From contig OX597837.1 of the NCBI GenBank assembly GCA_951406725.2, positions 6,324,001 to 6,388,000 on the forward strand: 64,000 nt of DNA, in the 5' to 3' direction. This document shows, one piece after another, positions 5,244 through 6,792 of the stretch. Position numbers and translations under genes: made by a program. The notes under the pieces were generated by a model, which saw only the letters and a program-made list of their open reading frames with translations, did no database searches and was not told the DNA's origin. The stretch's first letter is position 1, and each line of letters begins with the position of its first letter. This stretch comes from Octopus vulgaris (Eukaryota).

Positions 5244-5420
5244 CGCCCTTCGGAAGCTTAGCAAGGCTCATGGGCCCGGTTTCTCGGTTTCTGTGACCTA
5301 TATGATCCCCCCAGCTGGACGGGACGCCAGTCCATCGTAGCGTTACTCAAGAAACAGGATAAAGAGAGCGAGAGAAAGTTGTGGCGAAAAAGTACAACAT
5401 GGGTCAACACCCCCCTGCCG
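5244..5420 (-). mobile_element. SINE family C fragment with tail type 2
   Basis: Reverse complement of the body and tail of 36621-36910 (gaaaccgggcccatgagcct; gatggactggcgtcccgtccagctgggggg). Confidence 0.75.
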
Positions 5421-5450
5421 AATGAGAACCCAGGTTCGAAATTTCCCCAA

Positions 5451-5496
5451 GACACCTGATGAAGGCTGGAGAGTATATCAGCCGAAACGTTGTGTT
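5451..5496 (+). ncRNA. Minimal type I hammerhead ribozyme (Penelope pLTR type)
   Basis: GACAC-CUGAUGA-A-GGCUG(gagaguauau)CAGCC-GAAA-CG-UU-GUGUU: stem I GACAC/GUGUU, canonical core, 5-bp stem II, palindromic stem III AACGUU. Confidence 0.8.
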
Positions 5497-5832
5497 AAAA
5501 ACAAACAAAATGAGGACTAATATCCGTCAAATATAAATAATGTAAATAATGGCGTTGTTACGTTTCGTTTTTTTCTTCTTTGTTTTCTTTTTTTTTCTGT
5601 ACCGCGTTAGTAACTTGCACTCCATTATATATTTTGAAATATCGTATAATAATCATATCTCAGATATTTGTGTAGGTATCTATATCAACATCTATATTTC
5701 TTAGTTTGTTCACCAATCGTGGATGTAATGGTGTTAATGGTTAATTTGTGTAGGTGCGGAAAAAAAGTATTTCTTATACTTTGTAAATTATTCGTCCTAA
5801 GATACCGAAGTAATTACAACCGATTCAGAATC

Positions 5833-5890
5833 AGTTCTGCTGAGGATCATAAGACGTAAGTTGAATGTGAAATCACGGTGATACAGAACT
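5833..5890 (+). ncRNA. Type I hammerhead ribozyme
   Basis: AGUUCUG-CUGAGGA-(UCAUaaGAC GUAA GUUgaAUGU)-GAAA-UCAC G GUGA-UA-CAGAACU; perfect 7-bp stem I; predicted cut between 5883 and 5884. Confidence 0.8.
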
Positions 5891-6312
5891 AAATTCATTT
5901 TTTAAATGTCTTGCTTTGAAGAACTGCATTTGGGTATGATTAGTATAATTTTGGTAGTAATGACTTTGTCCCTCTTAGTGTGAGGCATTTATGTGTAATA
6001 ATGCCCTCTATACAATATAGATATAATTAATTTGTTCAAAAGAAAAAAAATATTTTCGAATTCTTTTCTTTTATGAGGTTTTTCACGCTAACTACCTGAT
6101 AATTTCTTGTTAAGATTCCTTATTAAGAGGTTATCCTCAATTGTTAAACTTATTCCGAAATACTTTTCTTATCCGACATGCAGTTTGAAAAAAGCCTGCC
6201 ATTTACCGAATATATGATTTATAAACATTCCATGTGCTTGGCCGGAGTGAATAGATGTCTGTTCGTCTTCGCTACGTAAGGTTGGTGGTTTATTTATGAT
6301 GTGTTCAGAATC

Positions 6313-6370
6313 AGTTCTGCTGAGGATCATAAGACGTAAGTTGAATGTGAAATCACGGTGATACAGAACT
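6313..6370 (+). ncRNA. Type I hammerhead ribozyme (second copy)
   Basis: Identical to 5833-5890, 480 nt downstream. Confidence 0.8.
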
Positions 6371-6491
6371 AAATTCATTTTTTAAATGTCTTGCTTTGAA
6401 GAACTGCATTTGGGTATGATTAGTATAATTTTGGTAGTAATGACTTTGTCCCTCTTAGTGTGAGGCATTTATGTGTAATAATGACCTCTAT

Positions 6492-6532
<41 letters not shown>

Positions 6533-6792
6533 TCATATATATGTATATATATATATACATATGTATGTATGCATATACATATGAATATATATATATATGT
6601 ATGTATATATATATTCGCTTATAAATATACACACATATATAATTATATAAATTTTGTGTCACATTAAGTCTCGTCAGGCACTTTCCTTTAAAGTATATTT
6701 AGATGTTTTGTGGCTCAAAAAAATTAAAGCAAAACTGAGCAATATTGTTTCTAAATTATCAAATTAATATCGAAATAAAATAAAATAATAAA

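Follow-up and report, generated by a model that had tools for sequence, protein, structure and literature searches.

The 64-kb stretch of Octopus vulgaris DNA analysed here (the window) harbored two related insertions, of families A and B, which agree with non-LTR retrozymes in every feature that DNA can show and constitute a new family within this known type of element, with cleavage and a circular RNA as predictions. We consider it fairly probable (about 0.6) that the element is copied into (TA)n by a Penelope-type reverse transcriptase (RT) from the predicted circular monomer RNA. Its insertions displayed 5' truncation, an inverted arm, a one-sided tail and a microsatellite target, which is the footprint of Penelope-like elements (PLEs).

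Structure of the insertions in the window

The family A insertion (5824-6499, forward strand) was a single arm of 1.4 units and 676 bp, its 3' end lying at a fixed site, S1. Both of its type I hammerheads had the core CTGAGGA, one at 5840 and one at 6320, and were spaced by exactly 480 nt as the sequence-only reading had it, and the 196 bp at 5824-6019 recurred at 6304-6499 with a single mismatch (C at 6004, A at 6484). Hammerhead 1 (5833-5890, forward strand) was made up of stem I (5833-5839/5884-5890), the core (5840-5846), stem II (5847-5868), GAAA (5869-5872) and a palindromic stem III (5872-5882), and hammerhead 2 (6313-6370, forward strand) had the same sequence. Placed by the standard NUH rule, the predicted cuts fall between 5883 and 5884 and between 6363 and 6364. 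The predicted 480-nt monomer RNA (5884-6363, forward strand), whose two ends stem I would bring together, folded at -126 kcal/mol as a linear molecule (z -5.9). Folded as circles, the monomers of A and B reached z values of -4.8 and -5.9 on the ribozyme strand, where they were highly self-paired, far beyond shuffles; the opposite strand gave -1.8 and -2.1.

The stretch from S1 (unit position ~196-207) to a second fixed site, S2 (~325-330), lay at 6020-6153 on the forward strand; these ~128 nt form the one-sided tail of two-armed insertions. A (TA)n-rich microsatellite (6495-6614, no strand assigned) was the target at the 3' end of the insert, in a 2.8-Gb, microsatellite-rich genome. No stop-to-stop frame of at least 100 aa was found over 5824-6499, so the insert is non-coding. 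Units of both families abutted directly, head to tail, with one type I hammerhead per unit and no apparent LTR structure. The element had no ORF with RT and GIY-YIG of the kind that defines an autonomous PLE, and no PLE protein match occurred in the window. An unrelated abundant repeat of ~132 bp at 5420-5551, 95-97% identical to its other copies, contained a minimal hammerhead (core at 5456) with stem III cut down to CG.

The family B insertion comprised a long arm (19643-21598, reverse strand) of ~4.1 units of 481 nt, with cores at 19961, 20442, 20920 and 21384, ending at S2 in (TA)n, and a short inverted arm (21590-22004, forward strand) ending at S1 in (TA)n, with its core at 21816 and a damaged stem I. 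Alignment of the A and B units gave 367 identical columns out of 497 (74%, E 2e-81), bearing out the earlier view of two homologous but diverged units. The 480-nt period they were said to share was exact in the window's family A copy; family B had a period of 481 nt and core spacings of 478, 481 and 464 nt in the window. Elsewhere in the window, retrotransposon frames at 52639-54186 and 54456-55070 (both reverse strand; 515 aa, zf-RVT match), which we take to be Dong/R4-like, adjoined (AAT)n runs, and a minisatellite with a 42-bp unit (4.7 copies) occupied 18192-18389.

Hammerhead fold

At the sequence level the ribozymes present as type I hammerheads, with the core CUGANGA...GAAA...UH, three helices and helix I open. 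Stem I read AGTTCTG/CAGAACT in A and AGGCCTG/CAGGTCT in B, and stem III TCAC-G-GTGA and TCAC-T-GTGA, respectively; stem II opened at its base with U-U and carried a GTAA loop, and an extension of net 10 bases, which left the central hairpin in place, distinguished the two families in this stem. The stems, the loop and the U-U were as the sequence-only reading had written them. Core position 7, which that reading contrasted between the two units, was G, C or T within family A, and the stem II loop was GTAA or GCAA there, so neither sets A apart from B.

Stem III is not closable by a one-base loop; it would be workable with 4 bp closed by three loop bases, or as a dimer formed through the palindrome. 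At -11.7 vs -8.7 kcal/mol, the lowest-energy fold computed for the isolated A hammerhead was an alternative, non-catalytic one. Rfam returned no hammerhead match at E<=10 over 5400-6495; motif and pairing are the basis of the assignment. Over the whole genome, the hammerhead motif pattern gave 864 exact matches against 0 for the reversed control, so the hammerhead is not a chance occurrence, and revealed several sister families; the invariance of stem III among these matches was partly preset by the search patterns.

Related families across the genome

With these 864 matches and 89 mapped regions, the element is dispersed, multi-copy and mobile. Similarity searches of the same genome, with ~40 candidates scored for each family, returned 200 matches to A and 214 to B, and a motif outside the ribozyme, designed to leave out A and B, found 1012 further matches. 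The two families were sister clades (support 0.93) in a tree of non-ribozyme sequence. Other sister families carried different stem I sequences and had periods of 476, 484, 488 and 486-504 nt, and a further family with the same hammerhead type (404-434 nt) matched A nowhere else. The flank of one family E copy had a coding look, which was rejected: this flank is another repeat.

Several loci deserve separate mention. A family B arm at L099-L100 (G000:C1, 64.64 Mb) reached 15 kb and ~31 units with an internal divergence of 0.09%. At L274 (G000:C5, 2.04 Mb), unit variants of a family B array recurred with near period-3, consistent with either a trimeric template or duplication at the locus. A 5.3-kb LINE with frames of 495 and 1133 aa, presumably Tx1/L1-like, lay inside a family A unit at L091 2457-7742 (G000:C2, 63.53 Mb); it was inserted after unit position 453, 43 nt before the core, with a 6-bp duplication.

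Selection on the fold and on unit length

Stem I differed between A and B at 4 of its 14 bases, as two both-side changes. Given these four substitutions, all seven pairs would stay intact with P 0.02, and would do so through two double changes with P 0.005. Among 14 hammerheads, 93% of cells paired and 8 of 15 pairs showed a both-side change, while slid registers paired at 23-39%; the covariation score was reached by none of 500 shuffles, a control that relatedness inflates. On a 13-sequence tree built from sequence outside the ribozyme, stem I underwent seven independent double changes and five single changes that kept pairing, and three single changes that broke it; slid registers on the same tree kept only 0-2 double changes. 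The double changes kept on the tree thus support selection on the ribozyme fold, as had been proposed from the compensatory stem changes.

Outside stem I the signal was fainter. The invariance of the core between A and B was not significant by itself (P 0.15). RNAalifold placed both-side changes in 18 of 72 pairs of the whole monomer, a structure fitted to the same data, and held-out pairs outside the hammerhead, predicted in one family and scored in others, were kept about as expected with no clear covariation (double changes kept: 5/10 for A vs B, 4.4 expected; 12/18 for B vs C_L154, 8.3 expected). Selection on RNA size, the other half of the proposal, was not supported, since a net A-B length gap of at most 1 nt arises by chance with P 0.08-0.10 given the observed A-B indels, and homologous units range from 476 to 504 nt; selection on an exact unit length is rejected.

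Insertion ends, arms and target

Loci of A, B and B-like type were merged into 89 regions with 153 arms; they were best matches plus pattern matches from contigs 1 and 2 and are biased to young, long copies. Arm 3' ends lay at the two fixed sites, ~128 nt apart, in 146 of the 153 arms (72 at S1, 74 at S2), with (TA)n directly beyond 142 of these 146, inside which target-site duplications are not readable. The 5' starts were spread over the unit (KS P 0.025 vs uniform). The circular permutation that the sequence-only reading had anticipated was therefore one-sided and held only by half, with variable 5' starts and 3' ends fixed at two sites.

Sixty head-to-head pairs were found, which combined S1 with S2 in 53 cases and S2 with S2 in one (a complex locus), and had one off-site end in six; among scorable head-to-head insertions, one arm thus ended at each site in 53 of 54 (P 3e-15). 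The same rule held in all 9 two-armed loci among 26 distinct loci of older sister families, read by eye. In the window, the family B copy was such an S1 and S2 pair and the family A copy a lone S1 arm. Either arm could be the longer one (30 vs 23). Arm lengths within pairs anticorrelated (rho -0.41), probably as a result of how loci were picked.

These ends bear on the view that the element is an ordinary satellite, or a dead PLE end fragment, that expands through local duplication of DNA and whose ribozyme-like motif is incidental. Long arrays did contain blocks of shared variants, a sign of local turnover, so part of the tandem length arose after insertion, and local amplification of pLTR pieces has been proposed in the parts covered of Li et al. 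(bioRxiv 10.64898/2026.07.22.740005). Young dispersed insertions with fixed 3' ends and (TA)n junctions, inverted arms of several units (both arms longer than one unit in 17 of 53 pairs) and the compensatory changes in stem I speak against it. For young copies this explanation is largely refuted, and overall we regard it as very improbable.

Template of the copies

The 1.4-mer form of the window's family A copy had been taken to imply a circular template. Shape alone is uninformative, since an uncleaved tandem transcript leaves the same one, and since the 5' flank of this copy is not (TA)n, a later deletion could have set its 5' end; the genome-wide evidence leans to a circle. At least one crossing of the cut site was seen in 136 of 153 arms, and 5' starts within 8 nt of it (4 of 146, 4.9 expected) showed no excess, which points to a template without a physical end there and excludes a cleaved linear monomer as the usual template.

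Successive passes over the template were nearly identical. Substitution distances were 0.33% (A) and 0.17% (B) within arms, 0.46% and 0.56% between arms of one locus, and 2.5% and 1.8% between loci; 30 locus-private variants were common to all passes, and 25 of these extended over both arms. Not one of 105 5' junctions was found again at another locus, in a test that left out 23 TA-rich and 8 plain-unit junctions and arms starting at the unit boundary of the query. A circle is the simplest account of near-identical passes, non-recurring 5' junctions and the lack of enrichment at the cut site; the data favour it short of proof.

Template haplotypes recurred across loci, with 14 classes in 36 A loci and 20 in 30 B loci, a pattern that a small number of homogeneous source arrays could also produce. 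The same element and PLE enzyme could have used as template a long homogeneous array transcribed into linear RNA and left uncleaved, the ribozyme serving another step. Arrays of 8 and 31 units exist, an absence of excess starts at the cut site is likewise predicted, and unprocessed RNA was the main PLE substrate in vitro in the passages covered of PMC11167929. Such a template sits poorly with the failure of any 5' junction to be inherited despite a median arm of only 721 nt, with the many distinct haplotypes lacking a known long source array, and with a fold kept across deep divergence; we judge it unlikely, if the strongest of the alternatives to a circle.

Contigs of three presumed-RNA runs covered the unit and two crossed the head-to-tail joint, which fits a circle, a tandem transcript or DNA alike; none of the runs containing the unit is on record as RNA. 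The motif upstream of 12 U2 loci, of the snRNA promoter type, was not visible by eye at the corresponding place in A and B.

Candidate partners and proposed mechanism

The inverted arm, the tail, the microsatellite bias and the two internal start sites make PLE machinery a likely candidate mobiliser. This genome abounded in intact 781-aa RT+GIY-YIG elements that terminate in (TA)n. Among 50 loci around GIY-YIG matches, mostly of one family and drawn from 150 scored out of 6136 candidates, and among 30 sister-family loci, no autonomous element had sequence in common with A or B. An intact 781-aa element at L200 (1430-6672), with many intact copies, had direct repeats of 456 bp and a second frame upstream, and no canonical hammerhead was found in it. 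A coding PLE with an inverted arm at L206 (2790-5983) had an extra tail of ~30 bp on one arm only. At L266 (1415-4215; G000:C12, 40.21 Mb), a family A array stood tail to tail with the 3' portion of a young PLE that was 99.5% identical to L206, with no TA between them; this junction probably arose from a deletion between adjacent insertions.

Under copying from a circle, a tandem copy would be transcribed, its hammerheads would release the monomer, probably helped by dimerisation via the palindromic stem III, and ligation would close the monomer to a circle. A PLE RT/GIY-YIG protein would cut (TA)n and begin cDNA internally at S1 or S2, the RT travelling round the circle for a variable length. 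Where both DNA ends are extended, one would begin at S1 and the other at S2, and the cDNAs would be joined head to head; the window's family A copy would be a single arm begun at S1, in which the cut site was passed twice. That a PLE enzyme dimer extends both ends of one (TA)n break on a single ribozyme-made circle, from S1 and S2, is a tentative proposal to which we give a little under even odds. If true, one mechanism would account for the tail of PLEs, for the inverted arm and for the origin of tandem arrays, and a 480-nt minimal substrate would be available for PLE integration tests.

The second arm could instead come from the first cDNA folding back and priming its own copying, with resolution at the other site, and not from renewed priming on RNA; such fold-back is compatible with either template. 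Self-priming has been put forward for PLE inversions (in the part covered of PMC3846280), private variants are common to both arms, and the 5' starts of the two arms lay at most 60 nt apart in 18 of 44 pairs (11 expected, P 0.015). Against this, start offsets spanned the whole unit (KS P 0.09) in both directions, the longer arm can be either, and nothing in the process makes the two ends differ. The modest excess of neighbouring 5' starts leaves some room for fold-back copying, which appears improbable, and priming from both sites is retained as the likelier account of the paired arms.

Comparison with known systems

The comparisons below draw on parts of each cited source. The literature searched, mostly without subscription papers, gave no account of this family, of retrozymes in cephalopods or of PLE hammerheads in connection with twin priming, and relatives may be listed in the supplement of PMC7229834; the word 'ribozyme' does not occur in the covered part of an Octopus repeat paper. 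Metazoan non-LTR retrozymes (Cervera and de la Pena 2020, PMC7229834) resemble the octopus element in their non-coding tandem units that each carry a single type I hammerhead, low GC, a strongly self-paired monomer and sister families within one genome, and axolotl HHR_Amex2 likewise has U-U at the base of stem II. Their units measure 170-400 nt, against 480 nt here. Coral, mussel and axolotl retrozymes form circles, and their mobilisation by PLEs from circles was proposed, not demonstrated, in that paper, whose main text lacks the terms octopus, cephalopod, squid and 'inverted' and, in the sections covered, an analysis of insertion ends.

Animal retrozymes have also been described as non-autonomous PLE sequences that co-occur with PLEs (Li, Clavereau, Pollet 2026, bioRxiv 10.64898/2026.07.22.740005), with unit lengths of 51-972 bp that span the 480-nt unit. 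Those of Xenopus have pLTR homology, whereas no homologous autonomous element was found for A and B, and 8 of 9 Xenopus dimers failed to cleave. That preprint favours local amplification and gives no insertion-end geometry in the sections covered. The hammerheads of PLEs (Cervera and de la Pena 2014, PMC4209133) share the type I topology and a palindromic helix III able to dimerise; helix III is longer in the octopus element, in which 4 bp with a 3-base loop is possible as a monomer.

EN+ PLEs share 5' truncation, a head-to-head inverted arm, a tail at one end and (TA)n targets with the octopus insertions (PMC8557442, PMC3846280), as well as two internal RT start sites (PMC11167929); the passages covered of these three papers give no count of strict arm alternation. 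In vitro, PLE protein cut and extended both strands, with internal starts at two sites bounding the tail, and hammerhead cleavage was dispensable for insertion (PMC11167929). The origin of tandem and inverted PLE insertions was stated as unresolved in PMC8557442. The young, high-copy octopus family offers a countable footprint, with both sites used in 53 of 54 pairs; its template is small, and twin priming, fold-back, and circular and linear templates predict different outcomes on it. The tail of EN+ PLEs measures 30-40 nt, against ~128 nt in the octopus element, which has no ORF, and the two-site rule with this 128-nt tail is the part most worth testing.
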